DNA from: Candidatus Falkowbacteria bacterium RIFOXYA2_FULL_38_12
GTDB taxonomy: Bacteria; Patescibacteriota; Patescibacteriia; XYB2-FULL-38-15
Length of the DNA: 64,000 nt
Reading direction: 5' to 3'
NCBI GenBank assembly: GCA_001778095.1
Contig: MFGA01000006.1
Location: 6,169-70,168, forward strand
A program made the translations under genes and the position numbers. The notes under the pieces are model-generated. The model made no database searches, had not been told where the DNA came from, and saw only the letters and a list, made by a program, of their open reading frames with translations. This document shows positions 155 to 55,875 of the stretch, piece by piece. Position 1 is the stretch's first letter. Every line of letters starts with the position of its first letter.

Positions 155-350
155 CAACGGCTTCGGAATAAACGAAGTGGCCGAAGGGATTTCGTAGCGA
201 AGCGGAGAAATGCCGAGAGGCCATTTCGTGTATTCCGTGTTATGCGATGTCGCGACCGAAGGGAGCGACGAGCATAACCGGAATTATTTCCGAAGCCGTT
301 ATGGCGAAAAAGGAGCGACCGAAGGGAGCGATTTCGCCATAACTAGTTAA
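155..350. repeat. Array of three hairpins sharing a CCGAAGGGA loop, nested in a 20-bp long-range inverted repeat
   Basis: Inverted repeat cgcccaacggcttcggaataaa (155-177) pairs with ttatttccgaagccgttatggcg (282-304). Hairpin stems acgaa/ttcgt, gtcgc/gcgac and ggcgaaa/tttcgcc each enclose CCGAAGGGA. Confidence 0.4.
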
Positions 351-2933: not shown

Positions 2934-5255
2934 CTACGGCAACGGTGTCGGAATTGGCGCCGGGTTTTCAACAATCTTGTTTTCCAGCATTTCCAGCTTA
3001 TCGTTTACTGTTTTGTTTTCAGGATCTTCTCTTAATATCTTTCTTAATTCTTTAATCGCCAGACTTTTTTCTCCTTGCTCTTCATAAATCGCCGCTAAAT
3101 ACCAATGAGCATTGGCAAATTTAGGTTCAAGTTCCAATGTTCTTTTTAGTTCAGCGATAGCTTTGTCTGTTTCTTTGTTTTGATGATAGAGCAATCCAAG
3201 CTGGAAGGAAATTCCCAAATCGCTTGGTAAGCTATAACGCATGGCTTCAAGTTTTGCGATGGCTTCTTTTGTTTTTCCTTGGCGACTAAAAACTAAAGAT
3301 AATTGAAAATGGGCCGGGACATAGTCGCTTTTTAGTTCAATGGCTTTATTGAATTGCTCTTCGGCTTTTGTCAGATTTTCTCTTACTTCTGATTGAACTT
3401 CATTTTTTGGTCTTTCTCCACTATTCCCTAAAATTAAATCAGCAATGGTAATATAGGTTTTGCCCAGCTCGTTATAAAAAACAGGATTATTCGGTTCCAG
3501 TTCTATCGCTTTTTTCCAGGAATCAATGGCCCAACCACCGGCTCCGTCAATAAAAGGCATTACGGTTTGATAGACAGAAGCGAGAACACTCCAGTTAGTT
3601 GAACTTTGCGGGCTAAGAGCTATCGCTTTTTTTGCCGAATTTAAACTTAGGGCTGTTAGATTCTCCACCTTTTTCGCTCTTTCTTCTGTTGCCTCAAGGC
3701 TTATCTCATTGCCAATTGAAAGAAGAAGACTCTGGGCAAAGTTTTTAAAGTAAATATCATTCCAGCGATTTTTGGCGACAGCAATATTAAAGTATTTGCT
3801 CACTTCTTCAACGGCGCCTCCATCATTACTGATTGCTAAAGCTTTTTTTGAAGCAAGGTCTGCCATGTAGCGTTGACCGACAAGATAAAAAACGGAGATG
3901 GAGAGAATAATGCTTAGTGACAAGAGAAAGGATAAAACCAAAGAGGTGCGAGGGTCTTGCCTTAATGATGTTTCCCAAAATTTATGAGAAATGGAAACAA
4001 CTATCAAGGCGGAGAGAAGCCAAAAAGAAAATTCCAGAGTTAGATTTGATGAATAGAGAAATTTAGCCACCAAAAGCAGGAACCATGACGAAGCGACAGC
4101 TAATTCCATTGGCCAAAAATCACCCTTTTCTTTGATTAAATCCGTTAATGATTTTCCTCCCAAAAAGAGAATCATAAATATCCACGATAAAAATCCGATA
4201 AGTCCGATAGTGGCCAGGGTAGTGATTACTTTTGAAGAAGACTGGTCAAATTTTATATTCCAAAGAGGTGTTTTATTGATATCCGCCGGTTTAAATTCAT
4301 TATAGTCAAAAACAAAAGTGCCGGGCCCGGAACCAAAGAAAGGGTTTTTTTCCAAAGTTTTTTGCGCTACTTGGGCGCTCAAGGAAAAAGACGGGGTGAT
4401 TTCCGCCGGTAAATTTAAATTAAGAGGCGTTCGAATGAAAAAGAAAATAACCCCGATTAAAAGGGCGATCGCCGGTAAAATTGACCAAGATAAATTTTTT
4501 ATTTCCGGGGCTTTTATGACTATAAAAGCAAGGGTGAAAGCTGTGCCGATAACAAGGCTCGCCCAAGCCATTCGCGAGTCAATGGCTAGCAGTAAAAAGA
4601 TATTCAAGAGAGATAATATTGTGAGAAAAATATTTTGTAATATTGTGGAAGGTTCTTTTAGTTGAAGGGTGGCGTGCGTTTTGAAAAGCATAGCGGAAGC
4701 CAAGACAAAACCCAAGGCTGAAAAAATTCCCAAAGCGGTTAAACTGCCAATAGTGTTTCCCGTCCAGTTTGGCGCGAGGCTCGCCGGCAGTAATCCCAAG
4801 ATTCCGAATAAAGAAAAGATGGAAGTTAAAAAAGAGCCGACAAGGAAAGCGTAGATTATTTTTTTTATTTCTTTCAATTCATCAATATTGTTGATGATAA
4901 TAAAATAAAAAATAATAAAGCAAAATAGAGTCAGAAAAGAATCTTTTTCTACTCCGGAGGAGCCGACAAAACCTCTGAATCTATCGCTTCCCAAGAGCGT
5001 CGAGAGAAAATAAACTCCCAAATAGATAATCGCCAATAAATTAAAAAAACTTTTTCGCCAAATAACTTTTTTGGAAGCGATCATTTTCCCCAGCCAAGCC
5101 AATCCGGCAATAAGGGTGAGAATGACTAAAAGATTTTGCTTATTAAACTCAAGCATTTCCAGAGTGAAGGGAAGAAAAAAGATCGGGAGAAAAATTAAGA
5201 GAGCATAAAGACAAGTTTTAATAATTTTTCCGCACACGTTGGCGAGAGTAGGCAT
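2934..5255 (-). CDS. Polytopic membrane protein with O-antigen-ligase-like (Wzy_C-type) core and C-terminal TPR repeats
   Basis: 773 aa. About 10 predicted TM helices in the N-terminal 450 aa. C-terminal ~300 aa has TPR-like repeats (ELEPNNPVFYNELGKTY..., AIELKSDYVPAHFQLSLVF...). Confidence 0.55.
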   Translation of the reverse strand: MPTLANVCGKIIKTCLYALLIFLPIFFLPFTLEMLEFNKQNLLVILTLIAGLAWLGKMIASKKVIWRKSFFNLLAIIYLGVYFLSTLLGSDRFRGFVGSSGVEKDSFLTLFCFIIFYFIIINNIDELKEIKKIIYAFLVGSFLTSIFSLFGILGLLPASLAPNWTGNTIGSLTALGIFSALGFVLASAMLFKTHATLQLKEPSTILQNIFLTILSLLNIFLLLAIDSRMAWASLVIGTAFTLAFIVIKAPEIKNLSWSILPAIALLIGVIFFFIRTPLNLNLPAEITPSFSLSAQVAQKTLEKNPFFGSGPGTFVFDYNEFKPADINKTPLWNIKFDQSSSKVITTLATIGLIGFLSWIFMILFLGGKSLTDLIKEKGDFWPMELAVASSWFLLLVAKFLYSSNLTLEFSFWLLSALIVVSISHKFWETSLRQDPRTSLVLSFLLSLSIILSISVFYLVGQRYMADLASKKALAISNDGGAVEEVSKYFNIAVAKNRWNDIYFKNFAQSLLLSIGNEISLEATEERAKKVENLTALSLNSAKKAIALSPQSSTNWSVLASVYQTVMPFIDGAGGWAIDSWKKAIELEPNNPVFYNELGKTYITIADLILGNSGERPKNEVQSEVRENLTKAEEQFNKAIELKSDYVPAHFQLSLVFSRQGKTKEAIAKLEAMRYSLPSDLGISFQLGLLYHQNKETDKAIAELKRTLELEPKFANAHWYLAAIYEEQGEKSLAIKELRKILREDPENKTVNDKLEMLENKIVENPAPIPTPLP

Positions 5256-5568: not shown

Positions 5569-8500
5569 TTATTCCGCTGCGGGAGCTGATTCTGCCGGTG
5601 CTTCCGGGGCTGGGGCCGGCGCCTCTACTACTGGCGAAGGAGCTACTTCTTCCGACGCTTCTACCGCGGGTGCCTCTGGAGCTACGGGAGGAGCTTCTGC
5701 CGGAGGTTCGTCGCCATCGGTAGGAGCAGGCTCGACTGCCGGCGCTTCCGGTTCCGATTCAGCCGGGGCGGGAGATTCTGCTGGCGAGGCTTCGGCTGGA
5801 GGCGATTCAACACTTGGCGCCGGAGCCGGTTCTGCCTGAGGAGTAACGGGATCATCATAGCCACTGCGTCTGGCAATTACCAACCAATCAAAAGATGAAT
5901 TGGACATGCCGCCATTTAATTCTTTTATCTTAAAACTGGTTTGAGTTTTTTCCGCGATATAAATTCCGTTTCCTGCTTCCGTTAAAGTTATCATCACCTT
6001 AAGAGGTGTTTTGTCGGAAATATTTTTTACAAAATTTTCATCAACCTCACTTAAGTCAATTATCTTTTCTCCATTTTGCAGTTTTCCCGAACCGGAAAGA
6101 GTCAGCTCAACATCAGTAGAGGTAAGACCAAACATTTCTTTATCAAAACCGTTGTTAGTTAAATTAATTTTCAAAACTCCATTCTCGTCTATACTCCATC
6201 TATTATTAATGCCGGCAATTTTTTTGATATTTAAAATTGAAAAATTATTAGCATCCAAATCGCCGGTTAGTTTTTCCAAGGTGAGGACTTCGCCACTTCC
6301 CGGGTCGGTTTCACTGGACCAATCAATACTCACAAAAGCGATAATTGTTCCGGAAGGTTCATTGAAAGGTTCAAGGGCTAAACCAATATATGGAGCATGG
6401 TCTGCTTTCATAGCAACCCCGGGAGTGCTTGAGCTTGTTAATTTGTCTCCGCGAATAATTGGGCCGTTTTCATTGGAAATTTTAACGGGAACACGACCAG
6501 CAAGAGCGACGGGGTAAAGGTCGGGGAGACTTGATCTTCCAAGAGTCATACCAGGTTTTGTGGAAACTATTCCCATAACCGTATTATCGTTAGCTATTTT
6601 GGATTTTATTACTTTTTCATTATTATTTGGATCAATACTAACAACATCGCCCGGTTCTAAATTTTCAGAAGAAGAATAATTTTCGGCTAAGTCGATTTCG
6701 GTGATAGCTAGAGCTTCGGCATAGATAGTTCCAGCTGATGCGGCAGTAAGGCAGGTCGGTGTACCATCATCAACGCACAGTGATCCCTCTATAACAAGTT
6801 CATTCGGTGAATCGTCATTAACATCACCAGGATCATTGTAAGGAGTTCGGCCAATATTTGCGCGATTAGCATAAAGACCAAGTCCGCCGGTGAAATATCC
6901 GGCGTAGCCATTGCTAGAAGCGGTAGTAGAATATATACCATAATTAAGTTGATCGTTGTTTCCTGCATCAGTTGCCGTAAAATATCCCGCTGTTGCAGTT
7001 GCTCCTGGAGCGATAAAGTAGCCAGCCGTACCAGTACCAGAGGTAACCGAAGAGTAAATACCGTAATTAGTTCCAGCAGCTCCAGTAGCTTCCGTATAGA
7101 TGCCATAAGCAACTCCTGCACTTCCAGTTGCGGAAAATTTTGCTCCATAACCTGTATCAGAAGCCGAAGTTCCATATATGGCGTAATTGGTTCCAGTTGC
7201 TCCGGTTGCAACAGCATGAAGAGCATAAGTAGTCCCCCCAGATCCAGATGCAACAAAATATCCAGCTTTACCGTTGTCAGAATATGATCGAGCGGAAATA
7301 GCCAAAGAAATAGAATCAATATTGTCCGTATCTGTCGCTTCAAAAAATCCTGCAGTAGCATTACTACCACTGGCAACAAAATGCCCACCAACGCCGACGT
7401 GAGAAGCGTTAGAAACATTTATTCCGTAGTTAGTTCCTTCGTTAGCCGTGCTAGCAGCCTCAAAGCGTCCAGCAGTTCCGTTAAAAGAAGAAGTTTTTGC
7501 ATAAATACCGTAGTTTACTCCGTTTGTTGCATCTGTTTCTTCAAAATAACCTGCGTACCCGGTTGCTCCCGACGCAACAAAATATCCTCCGTAGCCAGAA
7601 GCATTTGAATTAACCGCATTTATTGTTCTTGTATCAGTTCCGGCGCCAAGAATATCAAGAGTATAATTATCTGTTGGAGATCTTCCTATTCCGATATGGT
7701 TTCCTGTCACTCCGTCAACATAGAGGGTTGTTCCGTCAACGATAAAATCGTCATCAACCGTGAGATTGTGCCCATCATGGATAGTTACGTTTCCTGCTGG
7801 ATGTAAATCAAGATCCCCCCCGCTTGTGGTGATGGAGTTTGTTCCGTAATTTGTTGTGGCTCCAGCCAAAAAGGCAGTGTCCGTGTAGACACCAAGGCCT
7901 CCCGTAAAATATCCGGAATAACCAGAGGCAGATGAAGTTAAGCCGTACACTCCGAAATTAGCTCCGTTTCCTGTTGCAGAGCCATATATTCCATAGTTTG
8001 CTCCTGTCCCCGAAGAAACACTGTAAATTCCGTAAGTCACTCCAGTTCCCGAAGCAGTAAAATATCCGGCAGTACCGGCCGCTGTTGTGTTCAAAGCATT
8101 AATCGTTCTTGTGTCCGCTGATGCTCCAGAAGTAACGTCAAGGGAATAGGTATTAGTTGGGTCGGTGTTTATTCCGATTCTTTCCGTAGTAGTATTAACA
8201 TAAAGAGTATTTCCATCTATAAGAAGATTATGAGCATTAGGAATAGTTACATCAGCAAAAGGGTGTAAATCAAGATTTGCCGCGCTTGTGGTGATGGAGT
8301 TTGCTCCGTAAGTCGTGGCATTCCCAGCAATAAAAGAAGTCTCGGCATAGACACTTCCGCCAACGCCAAGAAGGTCGGCGACGTAAGCATCGTTGCCGGA
8401 AAGAGTGAACCCGGCATTGGTTATACTTTCAGAACTTGCGCCAATCCAAAGATCATCATTGACATATAACCCTTTTCCTCCAGAAAAATATCCGGCGTAA

Positions 8501-9774
8501 CCGGCCGCAGAAGCTGTAATGCTATAAATACCATAATTAATACCAACGGCATCTGTTGCCGTAAAATACCCCGCATACCCAGTCGCCGAAGTATTAGATC
8601 CATACACACCATAAGTTGCTCCGGTAGCGCCAGTCTTTTCAAAATATCCTGCTGCCGCGCCGGCGGTGGTAGAAGCCGCAGTTCCGTAAACACCATAATT
8701 AGTCCCTGTCGCTCCGCTCGCATTAGCATAAATTCCATACGCCGCCGTAGTTCCCGAAGAAGCAAAGTATCCGGCATAACCCGAGGCTTGAGCATTTTCA
8801 GAATTGATTGTTCGGGAATCAGTTGAAACAACATCTAACCCATAAGACGGGGTGTCATTATTAATACCGACTCTATTATCTCCGGCGCTAACATAGAGAA
8901 CACTGGTATCTACAATAAAGTTATCGTCAGTAATAAAGACATCACCTCCGGCAGGGTTTAAAGTAAAATCAACCGCTCCGGTTGTTGTGATTGAACTTGT
9001 TCCATAAGTTGTGGCGTTGCCAGCAATAAAAGAGGTGTCGGTGTAAATAGTTCCTTCAACGCCAAGAGTGCCCGCGATAAAAGCGTCATCTCCATCCAAA
9101 GAAAATGCATTGCTAAGAGTCTCGGCATTGGCGCCTAAATATAGATTGCTATTAATATAAGCTGTTAAAGTTAAAGTATCCGTGTTAGCGTCGCCCAAAG
9201 ACCATGATCCGGCAACTGTTTCGTCTTGTGCTAGTCGGCCAAAGGCGGATTCATCCAAATCGTCAAGCATATCCGCGTTAAAAGAATATAAAGACGCGCC
9301 AATCCTTTTTCTTGGTGTCATTTCGGCGTCAGCTCCTACCGTAACTCCCAAAAAGTAAGCAGAAGCGGAAAAATTAATACTAATCGCGCAATCGCCAGAT
9401 TCCCCCAGAAGAGTGGAAAAAACTCCGTTGGAAATAGTAACGGATTTTGCGGATGGATTAAATGCCGCGCCACAAGCGTCACTTTCTCTCGCGCTCCAAA
9501 CAACATTTCCTCCGGCGGCGGCATCATAAATGGTGAAAATAATATTGTATGCTCCATCGGCAACCGGAACGCCGGAAGAATCTTGTAGTTTTCCTTGATA
9601 ATTTAATTCTTTATTAACCGCGGCCTTGGCCCATTGAGGCGACCATTGTTTTATCGCCGAAAGAGCAATTATTCCCGCGCTTATTAAAGACAAAACGCCC
9701 AAAATCAAAACCAAGAGAGTGAGGCTCCCCTTATCGCGATTGGTGTATTTGGTTTTTCTGTTTGGCAAGGTCAT
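5569..9774 (-). CDS. Giant secreted/surface repeat protein with Gly/Tyr-rich tandem repeats and Pro/Ala/Glu-rich C-terminal tail
   Basis: Probable start at the second Met (MTLPNRK, 9774), followed by a signal-anchor helix. About 40 degenerate repeats of the YG(I/V)Y...AGYF type. C-terminal about 90 aa are PAPEAPA-like. The first 21 codons of the track ORF (5569..9837) come from repeat family G. Confidence 0.7.
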   Translation of the reverse strand: MTLPNRKTKYTNRDKGSLTLLVLILGVLSLISAGIIALSAIKQWSPQWAKAAVNKELNYQGKLQDSSGVPVADGAYNIIFTIYDAAAGGNVVWSARESDACGAAFNPSAKSVTISNGVFSTLLGESGDCAISINFSASAYFLGVTVGADAEMTPRKRIGASLYSFNADMLDDLDESAFGRLAQDETVAGSWSLGDANTDTLTLTAYINSNLYLGANAETLSNAFSLDGDDAFIAGTLGVEGTIYTDTSFIAGNATTYGTSSITTTGAVDFTLNPAGGDVFITDDNFIVDTSVLYVSAGDNRVGINNDTPSYGLDVVSTDSRTINSENAQASGYAGYFASSGTTAAYGIYANASGATGTNYGVYGTAASTTAGAAAGYFEKTGATGATYGVYGSNTSATGYAGYFTATDAVGINYGIYSITASAAGYAGYFSGGKGLYVNDDLWIGASSESITNAGFTLSGNDAYVADLLGVGGSVYAETSFIAGNATTYGANSITTSAANLDLHPFADVTIPNAHNLLIDGNTLYVNTTTERIGINTDPTNTYSLDVTSGASADTRTINALNTTAAGTAGYFTASGTGVTYGIYSVSSGTGANYGIYGSATGNGANFGVYGLTSSASGYSGYFTGGLGVYTDTAFLAGATTNYGTNSITTSGGDLDLHPAGNVTIHDGHNLTVDDDFIVDGTTLYVDGVTGNHIGIGRSPTDNYTLDILGAGTDTRTINAVNSNASGYGGYFVASGATGYAGYFEETDATNGVNYGIYAKTSSFNGTAGRFEAASTANEGTNYGINVSNASHVGVGGHFVASGSNATAGFFEATDTDNIDSISLAISARSYSDNGKAGYFVASGSGGTTYALHAVATGATGTNYAIYGTSASDTGYGAKFSATGSAGVAYGIYTEATGAAGTNYGIYSSVTSGTGTAGYFIAPGATATAGYFTATDAGNNDQLNYGIYSTTASSNGYAGYFTGGLGLYANRANIGRTPYNDPGDVNDDSPNELVIEGSLCVDDGTPTCLTAASAGTIYAEALAITEIDLAENYSSSENLEPGDVVSIDPNNNEKVIKSKIANDNTVMGIVSTKPGMTLGRSSLPDLYPVALAGRVPVKISNENGPIIRGDKLTSSSTPGVAMKADHAPYIGLALEPFNEPSGTIIAFVSIDWSSETDPGSGEVLTLEKLTGDLDANNFSILNIKKIAGINNRWSIDENGVLKINLTNNGFDKEMFGLTSTDVELTLSGSGKLQNGEKIIDLSEVDENFVKNISDKTPLKVMITLTEAGNGIYIAEKTQTSFKIKELNGGMSNSSFDWLVIARRSGYDDPVTPQAEPAPAPSVESPPAEASPAESPAPAESEPEAPAVEPAPTDGDEPPAEAPPVAPEAPAVEASEEVAPSPVVEAPAPAPEAPAESAPAAE

Positions 9775-9782
9775 AAAAAAGG

Positions 9783-9880
9783 ATTTTCCCCTCCCTTGAG
9801 GGGAGGGGTTAGGGGAGGGTGATATTTGTAGAAACATTTCACCCCCACCTAGCCTCCCCCATCAAGGGGGAGGAATGATA
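9783..9880. repeat. Repeat family G copy 1 (palindromic G/C-rich element, arms CACCCTCCCCTAACCCCTCCCATCAAGGGAGGGG)
   Basis: Two about-35-bp inverted arms separated by about 14 nt. A full copy lies at 32050-32140 and a single arm inside uvrB. Confidence 0.7.
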
Positions 9881-9881
9881 T

Positions 9882-12800
9882 TTATTGTCTTTCCAGCGCT
9901 ACATTAAATCTCACCGCTGCTCCTTTTTCTTTAGCGGTTAAATCTATATCATCGGTTTTTCGCGGTTTGAACTCCGGTTTACTGAAAGTCGCGTAATAAA
10001 CATTATTTCCAACCAAGAACGAATATCTTCCATTGGCATCGGTGACCTGTGTTTCCAATAATTTGTTATATTCTTTTTCAAAAATTCTGGCGACAGTTAA
10101 TCCAACAGGTTTTTTGGTATTTTTATCATAAACAACACCCCAGTTTTTCGGTTTTTTGGCTCGCGCAACTCTTTTCATGACAAAAAACAAGACAAAGTGT
10201 CCGGCCAAAAGTCCGAACATCCACGGCTTTGGCGAAATCATTACCGAAGCCATGGTAACGAGAAGTCCGGTCAAGGCGACAAGATCCTGCGCTCTTTTGC
10301 CAAAATATCCCAAAATAATCTTTTTATCAGTTACGGTTTTTTTACTTTCAATCGGATCAATGGGAATGTTTGGTGTGATGGTGGTATCTTTTTCGTTAAC
10401 AGTTAATTCTTCGCCATGATAAATATCTAAAAATTGGATATCTTCTTTTTTATCTTTCATGTAAACGGACGGAAAAGTGAAATTCGGTTTTGAAACTGCG
10501 ATATTGTATTTTCCCGGATTAACAAAAAAGGCAAATCTTCCTTCTCGGTCAGTCACTCTTGTTTGGACAAGTTTATTTGTTTCTTTGTTATAAAGACGAA
10601 CGATCGCCAGATCAACCGGCATTTTTGATAAAGAATTGTAGACAACGCCCCAACCTTTTCTTTTTTTAGGAAACAAGAGCAAAAGAGGTTGAGTAAAAAG
10701 GAATTGCAGAAAAGGAAGCAGGCTGGAAAAAGAAATAGCGGTTCCGTAGCTGATTATGGCAACGGCGGCAACGGTCGGCGCGGCGATATTTTCATTTGCT
10801 TTTTCAACTTCGGGATTATCTAAAACTTTTTCAGTGATTATTTCACCACCTTCACTTATTTTCTCGGCAATATTTTTGCTGACATTGGCAATATTCTCCG
10901 CAACGGGGGCTTCTTCGTTCCAGATAGGCTTTTCTTCGACAACAATAACCTCTTTTTTTAATTCAACAGTTTGGTTTATGTTATTTGTTGTTATCTCAAA
11001 TATTTCAGTTTGTTTTTTTTGATATCCGCTTTTTTCAACCACCAAGTAATATTTTCCTTTTGGTGTAATAAAACTATATTCGCCGTATTTGTTAGTATAT
11101 TGTGGATTCTCTTGGTTGAATTTTGCTCCGCTCCAGATAGTCTTGGGATTTTCCGTAAAAAGAGTGACTTTTGCTCCCTCTATTTTATTATCCCCTCTTC
11201 CTTCCCAGACAAAACCCGAATTGAGAAGAGAAAAACTTCCATCAATTTTGTCAAAAGTTCCATCTTCGTAGCTTACATATAAAGAAAACAATAGATTGGC
11301 CGGCTCATCAGGTATTTCAAAAGAAGTTTCATAAAAATTTTTACTATTCAGAGAAAGAAGATATGAAGAATTTTTAAAAATAATAGCAAGTTTTTCGGAA
11401 TTCTTGGTAAGTTTTTCTTTTTCTATTTTTAAGAGAACGGTTTTGTTGGTTAAGATTGATATTTGATTGTCTTGATTCGGTGAAAGTTGGATAGCGCCGT
11501 TGGCGGCAAGGAAACTAAAATCATTGATAGTCAGTTTTTCTTCTCCAAGAATAATTTTTTCTTCATCTATTTTTCCAAATATTTCTCCGGCTATTTCTTC
11601 AATTTCACCTTCTATGGCCGGTGGCAATTCCGGTTCTCCCGGACAACCGTCCCCCACGCAGGGCGGTTCTTCTGGAGGTTCTTCGGGTTCTTCTTCAGGC
11701 TCTTCATCGCACTCATCGCCAACGCACGGCGGTTCGACCACTACAACGATCGTCGCTTGAGTGAGCGCGCCGGCAGAATGATTTAGTGAAGCGTCATATG
11801 CGAAAGCGGTGTAATAAACCGGTCTGTTATAATCAGCTGCTGCAAATCTTATATCTGAAAAGTTTTCGGCTCTTCCGTCAAAAACCAAATCTCCTTCTTC
11901 CGGATTCGCCGGATGACTACCAAAGCTTCTTTTTATTAAGACTCTTGTAAAATCAGGATCAGCGGGGTTTGTCCAAGAAAGGTTGATTGTTCTTGCCGGA
12001 GTGGCGGTTGCGTTAAAATTACTGACATTGGCTGGCGGAATGAGGTCGTTTGTAGTAGTAAAAGTTTGATCTCCGGAAATAGCTGTATTTCCCCAAGCGT
12101 CAGTGGAAGTAATAATAAAATGGTAAGCTGTAGCAGTTTCCAGTCCTCCTAAAACAACAGTGTGGTTTAAAACAAAAGCGACTCCGGTGGCCATGCTTCC
12201 ATAAAGAATATTTTTTCCGTAATTTACAACACTGGTTGCCCCTTCATTAGTTTCCCAAGTTATTTCAGCCGAACTGTTTGTTATATTTATTGTTTGAATA
12301 TTGGAAATTACCGGCGGAATAATATCTTCTTCTGGTTCCGGTTCTTCTTCCGGCGGAATCACTGGAGGTGGTACAACCGGTCCCGGGGGAACTCCGCCTT
12401 CTTCAACTTCAGCGCTAACTGTCACCTGCTCATTGCTTACTATGTATATTGTTATTGTTTTTGAATCTCCAAAATTTCCGCCAATTTGGATAAAGTATGA
12501 ACCGGTCACGGCCGGATTTGTGATTCGTTCATTTCCGATCCCCTCTTCTGTCGTGTTTAGTCCTATTCTTATAATCACTGCGGAACTTCCGGCAATATAT
12601 GTTCCCGCATTGCTTGGCGCGGTCAGGGTAAAAACTCTGGCGGCAACCGATACTCCCCATTCTGTAGCCGTTGCTCCGCATCCGCCGGCTTCATTGTTAA
12701 TATCTTCTTGCGCTCCGTCATCAAGTAGATCAACGTCTCCACAATCAATGCCACCTAGATCGGCCGCAAAGGCACTGGGAAAAGTAATGGCAATGGTTTT

Positions 12801-12998
12801 ATTTTCTATGATTGCGGTTGAAAGAGTGGTAGTAAAAGAAAATTCATGATTAGCCGCGGCGCTGGTGGCAGTTCTTGATAAAGTGTCTTTTGCTTCAAAT
12901 AAAAGCCCGGCATTGGTTGGTTTTAAGAAGATAAGAGAGCCCAGTGTTACAACAGAGAATATTATCAGGTAAATCAACTTTTTGGTTAAGGAAAACAT
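9882..12998 (-). CDS. Large cell-surface protein with FN3-like and carboxypeptidase-regulatory-like beta-sandwich domains and internal TM segments
   Basis: 1038 aa. Signal peptide. Cys-Pro-Glu-rich linkers (PPCVGDECDEEPEEEPEE). Three CarboxypepD_reg-like modules (e.g. GVVYDKNTKKPVGLTVARIFEKEYNKLLETQVTDANGRYSF). Hydrophobic segments between modules. Confidence 0.65.
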   Translation of the reverse strand: MFSLTKKLIYLIIFSVVTLGSLIFLKPTNAGLLFEAKDTLSRTATSAAANHEFSFTTTLSTAIIENKTIAITFPSAFAADLGGIDCGDVDLLDDGAQEDINNEAGGCGATATEWGVSVAARVFTLTAPSNAGTYIAGSSAVIIRIGLNTTEEGIGNERITNPAVTGSYFIQIGGNFGDSKTITIYIVSNEQVTVSAEVEEGGVPPGPVVPPPVIPPEEEPEPEEDIIPPVISNIQTINITNSSAEITWETNEGATSVVNYGKNILYGSMATGVAFVLNHTVVLGGLETATAYHFIITSTDAWGNTAISGDQTFTTTNDLIPPANVSNFNATATPARTINLSWTNPADPDFTRVLIKRSFGSHPANPEEGDLVFDGRAENFSDIRFAAADYNRPVYYTAFAYDASLNHSAGALTQATIVVVVEPPCVGDECDEEPEEEPEEPPEEPPCVGDGCPGEPELPPAIEGEIEEIAGEIFGKIDEEKIILGEEKLTINDFSFLAANGAIQLSPNQDNQISILTNKTVLLKIEKEKLTKNSEKLAIIFKNSSYLLSLNSKNFYETSFEIPDEPANLLFSLYVSYEDGTFDKIDGSFSLLNSGFVWEGRGDNKIEGAKVTLFTENPKTIWSGAKFNQENPQYTNKYGEYSFITPKGKYYLVVEKSGYQKKQTEIFEITTNNINQTVELKKEVIVVEEKPIWNEEAPVAENIANVSKNIAEKISEGGEIITEKVLDNPEVEKANENIAAPTVAAVAIISYGTAISFSSLLPFLQFLFTQPLLLLFPKKRKGWGVVYNSLSKMPVDLAIVRLYNKETNKLVQTRVTDREGRFAFFVNPGKYNIAVSKPNFTFPSVYMKDKKEDIQFLDIYHGEELTVNEKDTTITPNIPIDPIESKKTVTDKKIILGYFGKRAQDLVALTGLLVTMASVMISPKPWMFGLLAGHFVLFFVMKRVARAKKPKNWGVVYDKNTKKPVGLTVARIFEKEYNKLLETQVTDANGRYSFLVGNNVYYATFSKPEFKPRKTDDIDLTAKEKGAAVRFNVALERQ

Positions 12999-13010
12999 CG
13001 CTTTACTTTT

Positions 13011-13249
13011 AAAACTCTAAATCCGAAATCCTAAACTCTAAACAAATACTAATATCAAAAGCCCCCTCAATTTATCATCCCGAGCTTGTCGACCGCGTGT
13101 CGCTAAAGCTTCAGCGAGTGGCGCAGGGATCTCACGCCGTGGTTAAAGAAGTATTATGGGATTTCTCGACAAGCTCGAAATGACAGAAATAGTTTTTGAT
13201 TTTGTATTTTGGATTTGTTTAGGATTTGGTGCTTAGGATTTAGGATTTC
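13011..13249. repeat. Repeat family E copy 1 (arms AAATCCTAAACTCTAAACAAA / TTTGTTTAGGATTTGGTGCTTAGGATTTAGGATTT) with a family-C element nested inside
   Basis: Left arm 13011-13046, right arm 13201-13249. The interior carries family-C copy 13073-13195. Same arms at 20621-20759 and inside the 16S gene. Confidence 0.7.
13073..13195. repeat. Repeat family C copy 1 (TGTCATCCCGAGCTTGTCGA...TCGACAAGCTCGAAATGACA) carrying an inserted CGCTAAAGCT mini-hairpin module
   Basis: About-20-bp TIRs. Relative to copy 2 (48102-48180) it has a 33-nt insertion ccgcgtgtcgctaaagcttcagcgagtggcgca. Confidence 0.75.
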
Positions 13250-14199
13250 TTTCCATACTTCTCTAAAATCCACCTATTATATCTTTTTATTCCCAAAACA
13301 AAGATTAAAAAGACAACTAAAATAGTTATTAAAGATATTCCGATAACGCGCCAAGGAAACACCCAAAAAGATTTTTCAGCAATAAGTGTTTGATCGGCGG
13401 ATCCGTAGCCTAGCGTAGCAACTGCTGAATATCGGCCAAAAGCAAAATTATCTTTTTCTTTTATTATTTCAGATAAATTTTCCGCGACATCTTTATTTTT
13501 CCAGGAAACATTATATTGTCGCACTGATCCGGGCAAGGCATTATTAAGCCCCGGGTTTACATCCAACGAAGCGACTTCTTTTCCCCAAATATTTTTTATT
13601 TTTATCTCGCCAATGGGTTTCAAATAAACATTGCCCATATTTTCAAAGCGCAAGGAAAGATTTACCGGCAGATGATTATACATTTTCTTGTCAGCGGAAA
13701 ATTCTATTATTCTAGCCTTCTCTTCGGCCATGCCGGCGATATTTACTAAAATCAAAGTGCCGGTTTTGGAAGTAATGCCAACGGAGTCTTTATTTGCTGA
13801 CGGCATTGCCCAAAGAATTCCGGCGAAATGTCCACCCGGAAAGGCTCCATCGGGAATGTTTATTGTAAAAAGTATATTTTTTCTTTCGTTCGATTTTAAA
13901 GTGACAGTTTTTTCTTTAACGTCAATCCAGTTGGAAAGTTTAGAAGGATCATTTTTATCAGCTATTGGCAAGAAGTTTGGCGTCCCTTTTTCATTTAACG
14001 GTTTAAAATCTCTAACTTCAGCTACAAGAGTTATCGGAGCGGAAGTTTCATTGAAAAGTTTAACAACATCAGTAATCGTCTCCCCTCTTTTGGCTATAAA
14101 TTCCATTGTTGGCGGAGAAATAGTCAGGGCAAAAGAAGAGATAGGAAAAAAACCAGCTAGCGCAATCAGAAGTAGAATTTTTATTATAGTTTTTTTCAT
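13240..14199 (-). CDS. Secreted protein with C-terminal membrane anchor (DUF916/DUF3324-like cell-surface architecture)
   Basis: 319 aa. Signal peptide. Beta-rich ectodomain. C-terminal TM helix followed by a basic tail (KRYNRWILEKYGKKS). Confidence 0.4.
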   Translation of the reverse strand: MKKTIIKILLLIALAGFFPISSFALTISPPTMEFIAKRGETITDVVKLFNETSAPITLVAEVRDFKPLNEKGTPNFLPIADKNDPSKLSNWIDVKEKTVTLKSNERKNILFTINIPDGAFPGGHFAGILWAMPSANKDSVGITSKTGTLILVNIAGMAEEKARIIEFSADKKMYNHLPVNLSLRFENMGNVYLKPIGEIKIKNIWGKEVASLDVNPGLNNALPGSVRQYNVSWKNKDVAENLSEIIKEKDNFAFGRYSAVATLGYGSADQTLIAEKSFWVFPWRVIGISLITILVVFLIFVLGIKRYNRWILEKYGKKS

Positions 14200-14210
14200 A
14201 CAATTTATTC

Positions 14211-14352
14211 TGTCATTGCGAGCCCAGACTTTTTAGTCGGGGCGTGGCAATCCCCTTCTTTTTCTTGTATTGCAGGGGATTGCTTGCACCGTCGCTAAGG
14301 CTATGGTGGCACACAGTCGTCCCCCGCAAAAGGCGGGGTTCTCGCAATGACA
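14211..14352. repeat. Repeat family B copy 1 with perfect 12-bp TIRs TGTCATTGCGAG / CTCGCAATGACA
   Basis: Perfect terminal inverted repeat read directly. The interior contains a CGCTAAGGCTAT mini-hairpin and a ccccgcaaaaggcgggg hairpin. Confidence 0.8.
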
Positions 14353-14357
14353 AACTC

Positions 14358-15050
14358 TTAAAAGTTTCCCGTAGAAATATAAGTAACCGTATGCGAATAG
14401 TTCCCAGTAACTGAACTTGTGGAAATTGTCGCTCTGTAGGTAATTGTAGTTGTACTTGCGTTTATATAACTTGAATAAGAGGCAACGGTTTGAGCAGTAC
14501 TGGTAATCGCCGTATCGGTCGCATTCATTTGTCCTTGGTCTCCCGAAGTTCTAATTCCATATTCTTCACTTCCGGCGCTCACAGATCCATCGGCGACATC
14601 GTTAATATCGTTTGCCCCACTTCTTAAGTTCCCATCTTCAATAACGGTTGTCGTATATCCTTTTTCTGAATTCGTTGTAGTGATAATCGTGTGGCTCCTC
14701 GTAGTAACAGCGTTTCGATCCAAAAGACCAAAATCAATTGAGTTGCTTGATATTGAAAAAGTTAAAGTTGGATTTGCCTCAACTTGTCTAAATCCCCCCT
14801 GATTTCCATAACTTGCGCTTGAAATTGGACCAGTTCCTAATTCTCCCAGAGTGTCCTGTAGTTGGTAGCTGGCAGAGCTTGAAGTTTCCTCCCCGCCGAC
14901 ATTAAAAGAATCCATCCAATTAATATAATTAGCTGAACTCATGGAAGCCAAGGACGTTTTTGGCTCTATGGTAAAAGGAAAAAAAAGACAAAAACAAACC
15001 AAAGCGATTTTTATTAATTTTATGAACAAAACCATCATAAAATAAATCAC
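14358..15050 (-). CDS. Secreted Ser/Thr-rich protein of unknown function
   Basis: 230 aa. N-terminal hydrophobic signal. Rich in S/T/N. Follows the surface-protein genes on the same strand. Confidence 0.45.
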   Translation of the reverse strand: MIYFMMVLFIKLIKIALVCFCLFFPFTIEPKTSLASMSSANYINWMDSFNVGGEETSSSASYQLQDTLGELGTGPISSASYGNQGGFRQVEANPTLTFSISSNSIDFGLLDRNAVTTRSHTIITTTNSEKGYTTTVIEDGNLRSGANDINDVADGSVSAGSEEYGIRTSGDQGQMNATDTAITSTAQTVASYSSYINASTTTITYRATISTSSVTGNYSHTVTYISTGNF

Positions 15051-15089
15051 TTTTATGCAATTAAAGGTACATGGAGACTTGTTCTTTGA

Positions 15090-15218
15090 TAATCCTTTCT
15101 ACTGCAACTGGTAATTTTGGCTCCAAATTGTTCAAAGCTCGTTGAGGTATTACCAATATCTCTCCTCGCTTTTCACAATTTTCGCTCAAAATTACTGCGT
15201 TTCGTAACGAAAGATTAC
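15090..15218. repeat. Repeat family F copy 1 (about 150-bp TIR element AATCCTTTCTACTGCAAC...GAAAGATTA)
   Basis: Near-identical to 52951-53084. Related copies at 58763-58925, 61182-61218 (partial) and 62046-62196 (inverted). Confidence 0.7.
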
Positions 15219-15584
15219 CAAAAAACAAGTCTTAAAAGAATAAAGCTTCTATTCCAAGGGTACGCAAACATTTACAGTCTTGATTCTTGCCTCAATTTTG
15301 GGTACAATTACATTAAGGCAGACTTGTTGCGGTTTGGGAAAGGAACTTTAATCTTTTTAACAAAGCCTCCCCTCTTTCTTTAAATGTTAACAATCAAAAT
15401 AAAGAGCAAAAGTGGATCAGATTGTTAATATTATTGTATACATTATATATATTATAGCATAAAAAAGGCAAAAAGTCAAAGATAGGAGCTTATATTATAC
15501 AATATTGTAAACATAGTGTATAGAGTACTGTAAACATTGAAAAAGAGGCTTTTGGCTATTTTGGTTTCCCCTGCCGTTTCCTGC

Positions 15585-15866: not shown

Positions 15867-16853
15867 ATGAATCCTTATCGTGAACCTAGCGAATTTACAG
15901 AGGCTAATCCGGCAATTGAAGAAATGTTAAAAAGGGAGAGGGCAAAAGAAATAATGAAAGATGATTATTTTGGTCCGGAAGCAGTTAAGACTGTCTTTGG
16001 TATTGAAGTTCTTGATTCGGAAATTCCGTCGCTTCCATATACATTAGAGCAATTAGAACAAGCTAAAGAGCTAGGCGAAATACTTATTTTACGCGTTTCG
16101 CATGATAATAGTGGTAGGCCGATGACTATGGAGCAGATCAATGAAATAATGCAACCCAGAATGAAAAGTAAAATTTTTTGTGATTATCGTCCAGGGGAAG
16201 GAGATTGGTTTAAAAGCGAAGATTTCTATAAAAAAGATTTTATTAAAACGGAATGGAAGCTAGTAAGCAGATCATTTCTTCCAGATGTAACTTCTAAAAA
16301 AAATAAAGAAGGAAAATATGTTAATGGTTCAAGGGGCTGTGGCTACGCATATCAAACTAAAATATTGCGAGAATGGCTTAAATCTATAGATTTCCTAGAA
16401 AAAGATGAAGAGTCAGAGTGTTCCGATAAAATACTTTTAGAATTGTCGGAAGAAGTAGGTCTTAAATTCGGGTCAAGCGCAATTAAGGACTATTCTAAGC
16501 GTTGGCCTGCGAAAAAAGAAAAAAAATTTTGCCGTAAAATAGTCAATTTAAAAATTAATGTAAGGCATAGACAATCCCCAACAGAAATACTCTATGATTG
16601 GATGTTGGGATTTTCCACTAGGGGAGGATTGTCTGTTTCTGATGCAGAGATAGCAGGTTCTATAGAAAGCAGGTTAAAATATTATGGCCTCTTCGGAGAC
16701 GAGAGGTCAAGGGTCTTGTCTCGTAGTTTGTCATCCAGGGGTCGTGTTGTGGGGGTTCATTTTTGCTTTTCATATTTAGGCGGGAGAATGTATATTTTTG
16801 ATAGTTATGCGAGTATAGGTGAATGGGAAGAAGGGTTAATTTCACAGCGCTAA
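15867..16853 (+). CDS. Hypothetical protein, no recognizable domain
   Basis: 328-aa ORF with ordinary codon composition. No motif I can assign. Lies between two family-A repeat copies with a small HTH gene downstream. Confidence 0.55.
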   Translation: MNPYREPSEFTEANPAIEEMLKRERAKEIMKDDYFGPEAVKTVFGIEVLDSEIPSLPYTLEQLEQAKELGEILILRVSHDNSGRPMTMEQINEIMQPRMKSKIFCDYRPGEGDWFKSEDFYKKDFIKTEWKLVSRSFLPDVTSKKNKEGKYVNGSRGCGYAYQTKILREWLKSIDFLEKDEESECSDKILLELSEEVGLKFGSSAIKDYSKRWPAKKEKKFCRKIVNLKINVRHRQSPTEILYDWMLGFSTRGGLSVSDAEIAGSIESRLKYYGLFGDERSRVLSRSLSSRGRVVGVHFCFSYLGGRMYIFDSYASIGEWEEGLISQR

Positions 16854-53924: not shown

Positions 53925-54099
53925 TAGAGCATATCCCCCAGAATGGGGAATTTTCTTTGACAACTTAAAGTGATAGAAATACCTCAATTCTTTAAATAAG
54001 AATAAATATAGTTATATATTGAGAGCTTGAACTCCGGTCTTCGGACCGGGTTGATTTTGTTCTTCTGAACAAAATTTAAGAGATTCAACACTTTCATTT

Positions 54100-55875
<1,776 letters not shown>

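Follow-up and report, generated by a model that had tools for sequence, protein, structure and literature searches.

Candidate Phyla Radiation (CPR) bacteria are thought to live attached to other cells, and the machinery that attaches them is mostly unknown. A stretch of 64,000 nucleotides from Candidatus Falkowbacteria bacterium RIFOXYA2_FULL_38_12 (contig MFGA01000006.1, positions 6,169 to 70,168 of the forward strand; hereafter the window) bears on this question through a block of four consecutive minus-strand genes, which an initial annotation had described as encoding secreted or surface proteins. Do these genes belong to one system and, if so, of which kind? We believe that the block is probably a conserved surface-appendage operon of CPR bacteria, a pared-down relative of the Pam pilus with an adjoining tail-fibre-like protein. 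The genes are named in the order of the initial annotation, their order along the minus strand is g4-g3-g2-g1, and the cluster also takes in a fifth gene:

5569-9774, minus strand: g1, tail-fibre-like surface protein (1401 aa; the open reading frame 5569-9837 gives 1422 aa from its first ATG)
9882-12998, minus strand: g2, putative base/anchor protein (1038 aa)
13240-14199, minus strand: g3, predicted membrane-anchored PapD/WxLIP-type chaperone (319 aa)
14358-15050, minus strand: g4, PamT-like predicted pilin subunit (230 aa)
2934-5255, minus strand: polytopic membrane protein with C-terminal tetratricopeptide (TPR) repeats (773 aa), the conserved fifth gene of the cluster

All four annotated open reading frames are present at these positions; for g1 the start at 9774 is preferred because the longer reading would translate two GC-rich hairpins, one of them terminator-like. 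A hydropathy scan detected an N-terminal hydrophobic segment in each of g1 to g4 as well as internal hydrophobic stretches in g2, and g3 has a C-terminal transmembrane (TM) helix, which bears out the signal peptides or anchors ascribed to the four proteins; all of them look exported or surface-located. The predicted pilin subunit g4, the pilin N-domain of g2 with its putative donor/linker strand, the probable auto-chaperone of g1 and the fifth, TPR gene had all been missed by the initial annotation.

The main comparison is with the Pam pilus of Ca. Mycosynbacter amalyticus, a chaperone-assisted, usher-less donor-strand pilus of which two filaments have been solved (Troman et al., 10.64898/2026.03.03.709456). 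According to the same preprint, PamA and PamB consist of an N-domain, a linker strand and a truncated immunoglobulin (Ig)-like C-domain and assemble by donor-strand exchange, PamC and PamD are membrane-anchored PapD-like chaperones, PamT is a single-domain tip pilin, PamR is an FnIII-plus-TM terminator with an extra N-terminal strand, and a conserved 'tail fibre-like protein' is central to pam neighbourhoods (10.64898/2026.03.03.709456). The NCBIfam models NF058579 and NF058581 derive from that work, and it was through them that g4 found its relatives. Three parts can be distinguished in g4:

residues 1-35, minus strand: signal peptide
14775-14945, minus strand (residues 36-92): conserved N-terminal extension with three S-x-N-Y motifs
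14361-14774, minus strand (residues 93-230): C-terminal Ig-like pilin domain

No Pfam family was found in g4. It matched NF058579 (CPR-type pilus protein PamT) at E 1e-18 and 67.7 bits (cut-off 240) and NF058581 (Pam_pilin_C, Pam pilus system pilin subunit) at E 2.9e-10 and 40.4 bits (cut-off 55). An AlphaFold2 model built from a 52-sequence alignment gave a predicted local distance difference test score (pLDDT) of 96-98 for the C-domain (93-230) and below 50 for the N-terminal extension (about 32-90). By Foldseek, the closest structures in the PDB were the chaperone-usher pilins CfaB, PapA, CS20, the PapG pilin domain, FimA and CsuA/B, followed by TasA and a bundling pilin from archaea; every one of these belongs to a donor-strand fibre. 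A search of the single g4 sequence against solved structures returned no match and the family profile a chance-level match only, PamA and PamB (25PZ, 25QA) being either missing from the searched copy or too distant. A more direct bridge is provided by L074, one of the loci collected below and a canonical-type pam locus, which encodes a PamT-like protein scoring 135.9 bits on Pam_pilin_C (above the cut-off of 55), four other pilins and a chaperone. The identity of g4 to its PamT-like protein (33%, E 2e-14) and of g3 to its chaperone (37%, E 1e-60) ties the window genes to the described Pam system. On these grounds we take g4 to be a subunit of pilin type that belongs with the Pam pili of CPR bacteria.

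The g4 family is large. A profile search of 1.84 billion representatives returned 4019 members at E <= 0.001 (about 4000 clusters at 50% identity), in which the domain appears in proteins of about 210-270 aa, in two-domain proteins of about 300-400 aa and at the extreme C-terminus of giant proteins of 1100-2750 aa. Seven such giants (P0459, P0462, P0468, P0469, P0471, P0478 and P0484; 1128-2757 aa) carry a C-terminal domain 42-50% identical to that of g4, and P0468 also contains a pretoxin-HINT domain. The giants with a g4-type C-domain share no domain with g1 or g2 and are almost without Pfam annotation. Strand complementation may serve to mount them too, as bulky cargo or as tip proteins.

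If g4 is a pilin with an incomplete fold, what would hold it before assembly? The neighbouring g3 is a candidate:

N-terminus, minus strand: signal peptide
residues 25-154 and 162-280, minus strand: two beta-sandwiches
13252-13353, minus strand (residues 283-316): C-terminal TM helix

Its AlphaFold2 model (pLDDT 91.1, predicted template modelling score 0.76) comprises a signal helix, two beta-sandwiches and the C-terminal TM helix. The best Foldseek matches in the PDB were E. faecium WxLIP structures, namely 9i25_C, where the protein is bound to long WxL (E 5.6e-11 over 274 columns), and 9i1y (E about 6e-11); ranking high after them were CsuC (E 2e-9), CfaA, Caf1M, DraB, SafB and EcpB. The fold together with the C-terminal TM helix is the architecture given for PamC and PamD, a comparison made by published description. 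We read g3, on the strength of its model, as a PapD/WxLIP-type membrane-anchored chaperone. The initial annotation had called it DUF916/DUF3324-like, and this held in that g3 scored 31.9 bits against Pfam PF06030 WxLIP_PGBD (DUF916), above the gathering cut-off of 27.3; DUF3324 went undetected in g3 by Pfam.

This family membership raises a different explanation, namely that the block is a WxL-type cell-envelope cluster of the kind found in Enterococcus, Lactobacillus and Listeria, in which g3 would tether WxL-domain proteins to peptidoglycan and host surfaces. WxLIP consists of DUF916, DUF3324 and a TM helix, and g3 resembles it in architecture, in its PF06030 score, in its best structural match and in the strand insertion predicted for the family: the DUF916 strand, a beta-hairpin, of WxLIP is predicted to insert into the WxL domain (Hassan et al. 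2023, PMC10599100), which is a comparable strand complementation. Moreover, the g4 family shares with WxL proteins the habit of occurring both as small proteins and as the C-terminal module of giants. However, the published definition of a WxL cluster asks for two or more WxL-domain proteins, encoded no more than four genes away from the WxLIP gene (PMC10599100), and Pfam detected no WxL domain (PF13731) in g1, g2 or g4 at E <= 0.01. Nor was there a WxL chain in the top 50 Foldseek matches of g4, which instead matches the CPR Pam pilin models; the organism is not a Firmicute, and the predicted partner of g3 is a pilin domain of the Pam type. With WxL proteins absent, we conclude that the block is not a WxL cluster and regard this explanation as improbable. 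The resemblance to such clusters suggested by the initial annotation therefore stands for g3 and fails for the cluster. We note that the WxLIP literature does not read the protein as a chaperone (PMC10599100), that the Pam preprint nowhere mentions WxL or DUF916 (10.64898/2026.03.03.709456), and that our literature search found no paper tying WxL proteins to donor-strand pili.

The chaperone-usher pili (Pap, Fim, CFA/I, Csu, Caf1) are likewise similar in parts: the fold of g3 clearly resembles that of PapD-family chaperones, the C-domain of g4 resembles pilin subunits marginally, and a donor-strand logic, as we would suppose, is common to both. Unlike them, the block pairs a membrane-tethered chaperone with an inner-membrane stalk anchor, sequence identity is only 10-17%, and the Usher family had no match in g1-g4 or the TPR protein; as there is no usher, this is not a chaperone-usher pilus.

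A pilus that is assembled by strand exchange needs to be rooted, and g2 offers a suggestion of how this could be done:

9882-12998, minus strand: g2, consisting in order of signal peptide, pilin N-domain, linker strand, Pro-rich linker, two FN3 modules, acidic Cys/Pro linker, beta-sandwich with CarboxypepD_reg, and TM segments alternating with two further CarboxypepD_reg domains
12405-12908, minus strand (residues 31-198): pilin N-terminal domain, ending in a putative donor/linker strand
12405-12431, minus strand (residues 190-198): the putative donor/linker strand, EQVTVSAEV

Pfam assigned CarboxypepD_reg to g2 at E 4.9e-21 over three stretches together with a weak fn3 match, and the hydropathy scan placed hydrophobic stretches at about 738-775 and 903-945, so that the FN3-like and carboxypeptidase-regulatory-like modules with interspersed TM segments described in the initial annotation could be upheld. 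The N-terminal domain became recognizable through related operons that hold an extra two-domain pilin, such as L001:10716-11819 (367 aa), the C-domain of which matches NF058581. Residues 6-198 of g2 align to residues 4-203 of this pilin with 45% identity (E 3e-39), and the alignment breaks off right at the linker, which reads EQVTVSAEV in g2 and DQVTVTATV in the pilin. What comes next in the pilin is the acceptor domain; in g2 it is a proline-rich linker with the FN3 modules.

Around half of the g2 homologues are without the N-domain, and in these the mature protein opens with a bare strand (e.g. EDINVTVTVETA, GTITVEATVP or GNINVQFTVP) followed by a Gly/Pro/Cys-rich linker. The strand motif, which immediately follows either the signal peptide or the N-domain, occurs with such a linker in 34 of 46 g2 homologues as opposed to 9 of 44 control windows, shuffled sequences giving a mean of 11.8 and a maximum of 20. 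Hence g2 is a membrane-rooted protein that has a candidate donor strand and no acceptor domain, which is the logic proposed for PamR, and this suggests that g2 is an anchor or terminator. Compared by description, the N-terminal strand, FN3 modules and TM segments of g2 recall the extra N-terminal beta-strand, FnIII domains and TM helix of PamR; unlike PamR as described, g2 is far larger (1038 aa), has a pilin N-domain and linker strand fused on, contains CarboxypepD_reg domains and has several TM segments.

Two further observations concern g2. Residues 738-1038 (window 9885-10787, minus strand) are its best-conserved part across loci, and the last two CarboxypepD_reg-like domains each follow a TM segment and a Lys/Arg cluster (PKKRKGWGVVYN; KRVARAKKPKNWGVVYD). 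In L001 (12994-17896; GCA_965231095.1) two separate genes make up the counterpart of g2: one encodes a 756-aa stalk protein, with the pilin N-domain, FN3 modules and a weak C-terminal Dockerin_1 match (E 0.003), and the other an 875-aa membrane protein with a weak N-terminal Cohesin match (E 0.07). A cohesin-dockerin joint may there replace the covalent link of g2, which fits the idea of two parts that need joining.

Is the association of these genes more than a chance of one contig? A scan over species-representative genomes yielded 80 loci, each of them from a CPR lineage, to which three fetched earlier were added, giving 83 loci, many of which end at contig edges. Beside the g4 homologue, a g3 homologue was present in 79 loci and the g2 C-terminal module in 60, where the identity of this module to that of g2 is 30-69%, mostly 38-50%; in 45 a large protein with the g1 N-domain lies directly downstream of the g2 homologue. 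Pairwise comparison with L003, for instance, bore out the orthology of g2 (a 1192-aa protein there, E 7e-101), of g1 (a 935-aa protein, E 4e-44) and of the TPR protein. Such recurring synteny implies that the adjacency of g4-g3-g2-g1 is not a matter of chance. The loci belong to Falkowbacteria, Magasanikbacteria, Uhrbacteria, Kerfeldbacteria, Peregrinibacteria, Nomurabacteria and Saccharimonadales. The CPR placement on which the initial annotation had made its interpretation depend was upheld: g3 is 100% identical to A2316_03680, a hypothetical protein of Candidatus Falkowbacteria bacterium RIFOXYB2_FULL_38_15 (Patescibacteria/Parcubacteria group). Many of the locus records (among L004-L083) are titled 'uncultured Gammaproteobacteria bacterium isolate binchicken_...', and single contigs sit in metagenome-assembled genomes named Bathyarchaeia, Nanoarchaeia and Udaeobacter; probably such names are placeholders, or CPR contigs were mis-binned.

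Against this background the relation to the Pam system can be stated more closely. Both are restricted to CPR bacteria, both have an Ig-like pilin C-domain (truncated in the Pam pilins and putatively so in g4) and a TM-anchored PapD-like chaperone, a tail-fibre-like protein lies nearby in both, and neither has an usher or other trans-envelope machine; g2, like PamR, would be the membrane-anchored protein with FnIII modules and an N-terminal strand that terminates and anchors the structure. The differences are that the window has one single-domain PamT-type pilin gene and no PamA/PamB/PamE-type pilin, one chaperone where the Pam system has two (PamC and PamD), and no ATP synthase gene among the flanking window genes examined (a subset of the window genes); the lineage also differs, the window belonging to Falkowbacteria of the Parcubacteria group and the Pam system to Saccharimonadia/Microgenomatia. 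A single pilin C-domain gene is, in fact, the common state, found in 62 of 84 sequences (the window and the 83 loci), with two to five such genes in the other 22. Since g4 falls below the thresholds of PamT and Pam_pilin_C and there are no PamA/B-type pilins, we consider the cluster a streamlined Pam variant and not a strict member of the Pam family as described.

The remaining member of the block, g1, is of another nature. Its parts are as follows:

residues 18-40, minus strand: N-terminal hydrophobic segment
9235-9612, minus strand (residues 55-180): conserved N-domain
6880-9177, minus strand (residues 200-965): Gly/Tyr-rich repeat region
6319-6738, minus strand (residues 1013-1152): predicted auto-chaperone (Peptidase_G2-like) domain
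residues 1160-1310, minus strand: second C-terminal domain
5572-5844, minus strand (residues 1311-1401): Pro/Ala/Glu tail

The repeats, visible at the protein level as 14 xGYF-like and 14 YG[IV]Y-like motifs spaced by 12-15 residues, lie in blocks (330-430, 565-625 and 720-965) kept apart by three super-repeats, each about 95 residues long, that bear the motif LYV...R[IV]GI...LDV. Instead of the approximately 40 repeats reported by the initial annotation we count about 28-32 units of 13 aa. Tandem Repeats Finder detected no tandem array in the DNA at 6850-9100, where such repeats had been reported; what exists are dispersed, degenerate direct repeats of 60-86% identity at 6870-9090. The Pro/Ala/Glu-rich tail is confirmed, with these residues making up 71% of the last 100 of g1. 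Orthologues of 1310-1709 aa in other assemblies follow the common design with differing motif counts, and the possibility that the repeat region had collapsed as an assembly artefact can be excluded because the copies are too diverged to collapse and the architecture is kept in these orthologues.

The domain at 1013-1152 resembles an auto-chaperone of phage type. A 17-sequence profile of it matched gp12, the pre-neck appendage protein (tail spike) of phi29 (6qz9, E 0.0058; the auto-chaperone fragment 3gqh, E 0.011), the chain of 3gqh starting with DFAEYF, aligned to DLAENY of g1. Pfam Peptidase_G2 was found in 5 of the 17 family members (best E 4.4e-8; 0.018 for g1 itself), and distant g1 relatives carry Peptidase_S74 or Peptidase_G2. 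The D, A and E of a D-x-A-E motif, at D1028-E1031 in g1 (window about 6682-6693, minus strand), are invariant in the alignment. The family is modular, with a widespread N-domain and many paralogues of 800-870 aa that end at a 1013-1152-type domain; the short paralogues have a D[LF]AE motif some 130 residues before their end. In phi29, mature gp12* ends at residue 691 (PMC6542822). We take these matches, weak but consistent, as pointing to an auto-chaperone domain of the phi29 gp12 type in g1, which may thus be a trimeric fibre with a C-terminal folding chaperone and autocleavage at a putative site between I1027 and D1028. With phi29 gp12 and other Peptidase_G2 and Peptidase_S74 fibres g1 shares an alignment over about 1013-1152 from the D-x-A-E motif, at which the cleaved gp12 fragment begins, and a long repetitive fibre upstream; it differs in being a cellular protein with an export signal or anchor, in its distinct N-domain and 13-residue Gly/Tyr repeats, and in having an extra domain and the Pro/Ala/Glu tail after the chaperone domain, and the similarity is weak (E 0.006-0.02). 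A profile of the N-domain gave no significant PDB or Pfam match, and a single-sequence search of g1 against solved structures gave one chance-level match (E 0.59).

The phage-type features could mean that the whole block derives from a prophage, as a tail-fibre module with accessory genes. The gp12-type auto-chaperone and tail-fibre-like motifs of g1 fit such an origin, as would a BRO-N domain protein at 2073-2930; PHROGs gave weak matches only, to families of unknown function. However, no capsid, portal, terminase or integrase gene is present, all the proteins have bacterial export signals, and the GC content is unremarkable. The flanks consist of housekeeping genes, namely YchF, ProRS, RmuC, PolA and the delta subunit of DNA polymerase III, and the last three also stand beside the cluster in the two distant genomes L001 and L003; this recurrence shows that the cluster is no mobile island. 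The genes present and the conserved flanks lead us to reject a prophage origin, which we rate as very improbable.

A more serious question is whether g1 belongs to the system at all. The machine could consist of g4-g3-g2 only, and g1 would then be a surface fibre in its own right, or a coat protein of S-layer type, that happens to adjoin it. The g1 family is multi-copy, with further paralogues at other places in Falkowbacteria genomes; neither an N- nor a C-domain of pilin type could be detected in g1; a g1 homologue is missing from the canonical-type locus L074; and the g2-g1 gap (9775-9881) contains a terminator-like hairpin just upstream of the g1 ATG:

9787-9873, minus strand: two GC-rich hairpins, CCTCCCCCTTGATGGGGGAGG and CCCCTCCCCTCAAGGGAGGGG

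The second hairpin is followed by a T-run, AAAATCCTTTTTT, and then at once by the ATG. The two hairpins could serve as a terminator or as an attenuator, or they could set the level of g1 by masking its ribosome-binding site. Against the separation of g1 stand the 45 of 83 loci in which the g1 N-domain protein directly follows the g2 homologue, many of the others ending at a contig edge, and the independent finding in the Pam preprint that a tail-fibre-like protein is central to pam neighbourhoods. We therefore think that an independent g1 is rather unlikely, though well ahead of the other alternatives considered so far.

From the homologies, predicted folds, architectures and synteny of the surface-appendage operon we infer the following scheme. 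All products would be exported via Sec. The presumably incomplete Ig-like pilin domain of g4 would be held by membrane-anchored g3 through strand complementation, while g2 would carry its pilin N-domain and the EQVTVSAEV strand at the far end of a membrane-rooted FN3 stalk, with no acceptor domain of its own. This strand would plug the putative groove of g4, so that g2 would end the structure and fix it to the membrane, as has been proposed for PamR. Because the window encodes no two-domain pilin, the product would be either a short stalk capped by g4 or a g4 homopolymer formed via the conserved N-terminal extension. Alongside the appendage, g1 would be made as a separate trimeric fibre of the phage tail-fibre type, folded with the help of the phi29-gp12-like C-terminal auto-chaperone, which would probably be cut off at the I1027-D1028 site, and would act as a host-contact adhesin. 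The initial annotation had put the cluster forward as an attachment or envelope candidate, and we judge it credible as such and a good candidate for host attachment.

Several points weigh against this scheme. The curated NCBIfam cut-offs are unmet by g4 on both PamT and Pam_pilin_C, making it a distant relative and not an equivalog of PamT, and its Foldseek E-values are marginal (from 2e-3, at a probability of 1.0). A tblastn search of the 64-kb window with three C-domain queries found only g4 and no two-domain major pilin, the sole N-domain with linker in the window being the N-terminus of g2, and PamT is regarded as having no donor strand (Troman et al., 10.64898/2026.03.03.709456); taken together, these two facts mean that a filament may not form at all. 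The last two CarboxypepD_reg domains of g2 would, by the positive-inside rule, be cytoplasmic, which the model does not explain. As for g1, it is tied to the other genes only by synteny, members of its family also occur away from the operon, and the terminator-like hairpin precedes it. Neither the strong conservation of the g4 N-terminal extension, disordered in the model, nor the way in which g1 would stay on the cell is accounted for.

A broader idea, which we offer tentatively and hold to be doubtful, is one of 'plug-and-display', in which the g2 stalk offers a donor strand and any protein ending in a Pam-type acceptor domain is locked onto it with the help of g3, the small g4 here and giants elsewhere. 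Pam, WxL/WxLIP and chaperone-usher systems would then be branches of one ancient strand-complementation display pathway, with g1 recruited as a host-binding element in CPR bacteria.

If the operon is indeed a reduced relative of the Pam pilus, it extends a system that was recognized only in 2026, and mainly in Saccharimonadia/Microgenomatia, to a related and simpler form conserved across Falkowbacteria, Magasanikbacteria, Uhrbacteria, Kerfeldbacteria and others. An anchor protein that itself carries a pilin N-domain and a putative donor strand provides a concrete model for the rooting or termination of such a structure in an usher-less, single-membrane cell. The placement of the chaperone in the DUF916/WxLIP family is a link absent from the Pam preprint, and it suggests that strand complementation may likewise be the working principle of the WxL clusters, themselves poorly understood, in Gram-positive gut bacteria. 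With its predicted phage-type auto-chaperone, g1 is a candidate host-recognition fibre.

The fifth gene of the cluster encodes a protein with Pfam TPR families and about 11-12 hydrophobic segments in the hydropathy scan. It is homologous to a gene downstream of the L003 cluster (E 2e-62), and 24 of the 83 loci have a homologue no more than 10 kb from the pilin gene. Its place is either downstream of the g1 homologue or upstream of the pilin gene, at a distance of about 2 kb. An O-antigen-ligase/PglL-type enzyme that glycosylates the pilin was considered and found to be unsupported, the membrane part having no Wzy_C or other Pfam family and NCBIfam reporting only TPR.

Upstream of g4, the best promoter-like site, identified by consensus match only, leaves a leader of about 400 nt to the g4 start:

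15451-15479, minus strand: putative promoter, TTGACT, 17 nt, TG-n-TATAAT (TGcTATAAT), with 11 of 12 consensus positions and an extended -10

No Rfam family reached its gathering threshold in the leader (15051-15479, minus strand). An open reading frame of 328 aa (15867-16853, plus strand) is divergent from the operon and had no Pfam match at E <= 0.01 and a chance-level NCBIfam match only (E 0.07).

At the other end, the BRO-N domain protein mentioned above (Pfam E 5.9e-11; minus strand) lies just downstream of the TPR gene and adjoins tRNA-Ala (1911-1983); BRO-N domains are common in phages and mobile elements. Further along the window, the 16S rRNA gene at 54098-55874 spans 1777 nt as compared with the 1533 positions of the model, which points to an insertion, and is followed by tRNA-Ile, tRNA-Phe, tRNA-Pro and tRNA-Gly, with no 23S rRNA within the 64 kb; the insertion together with the lack of a following 23S gene in the window is typical of CPR bacteria.

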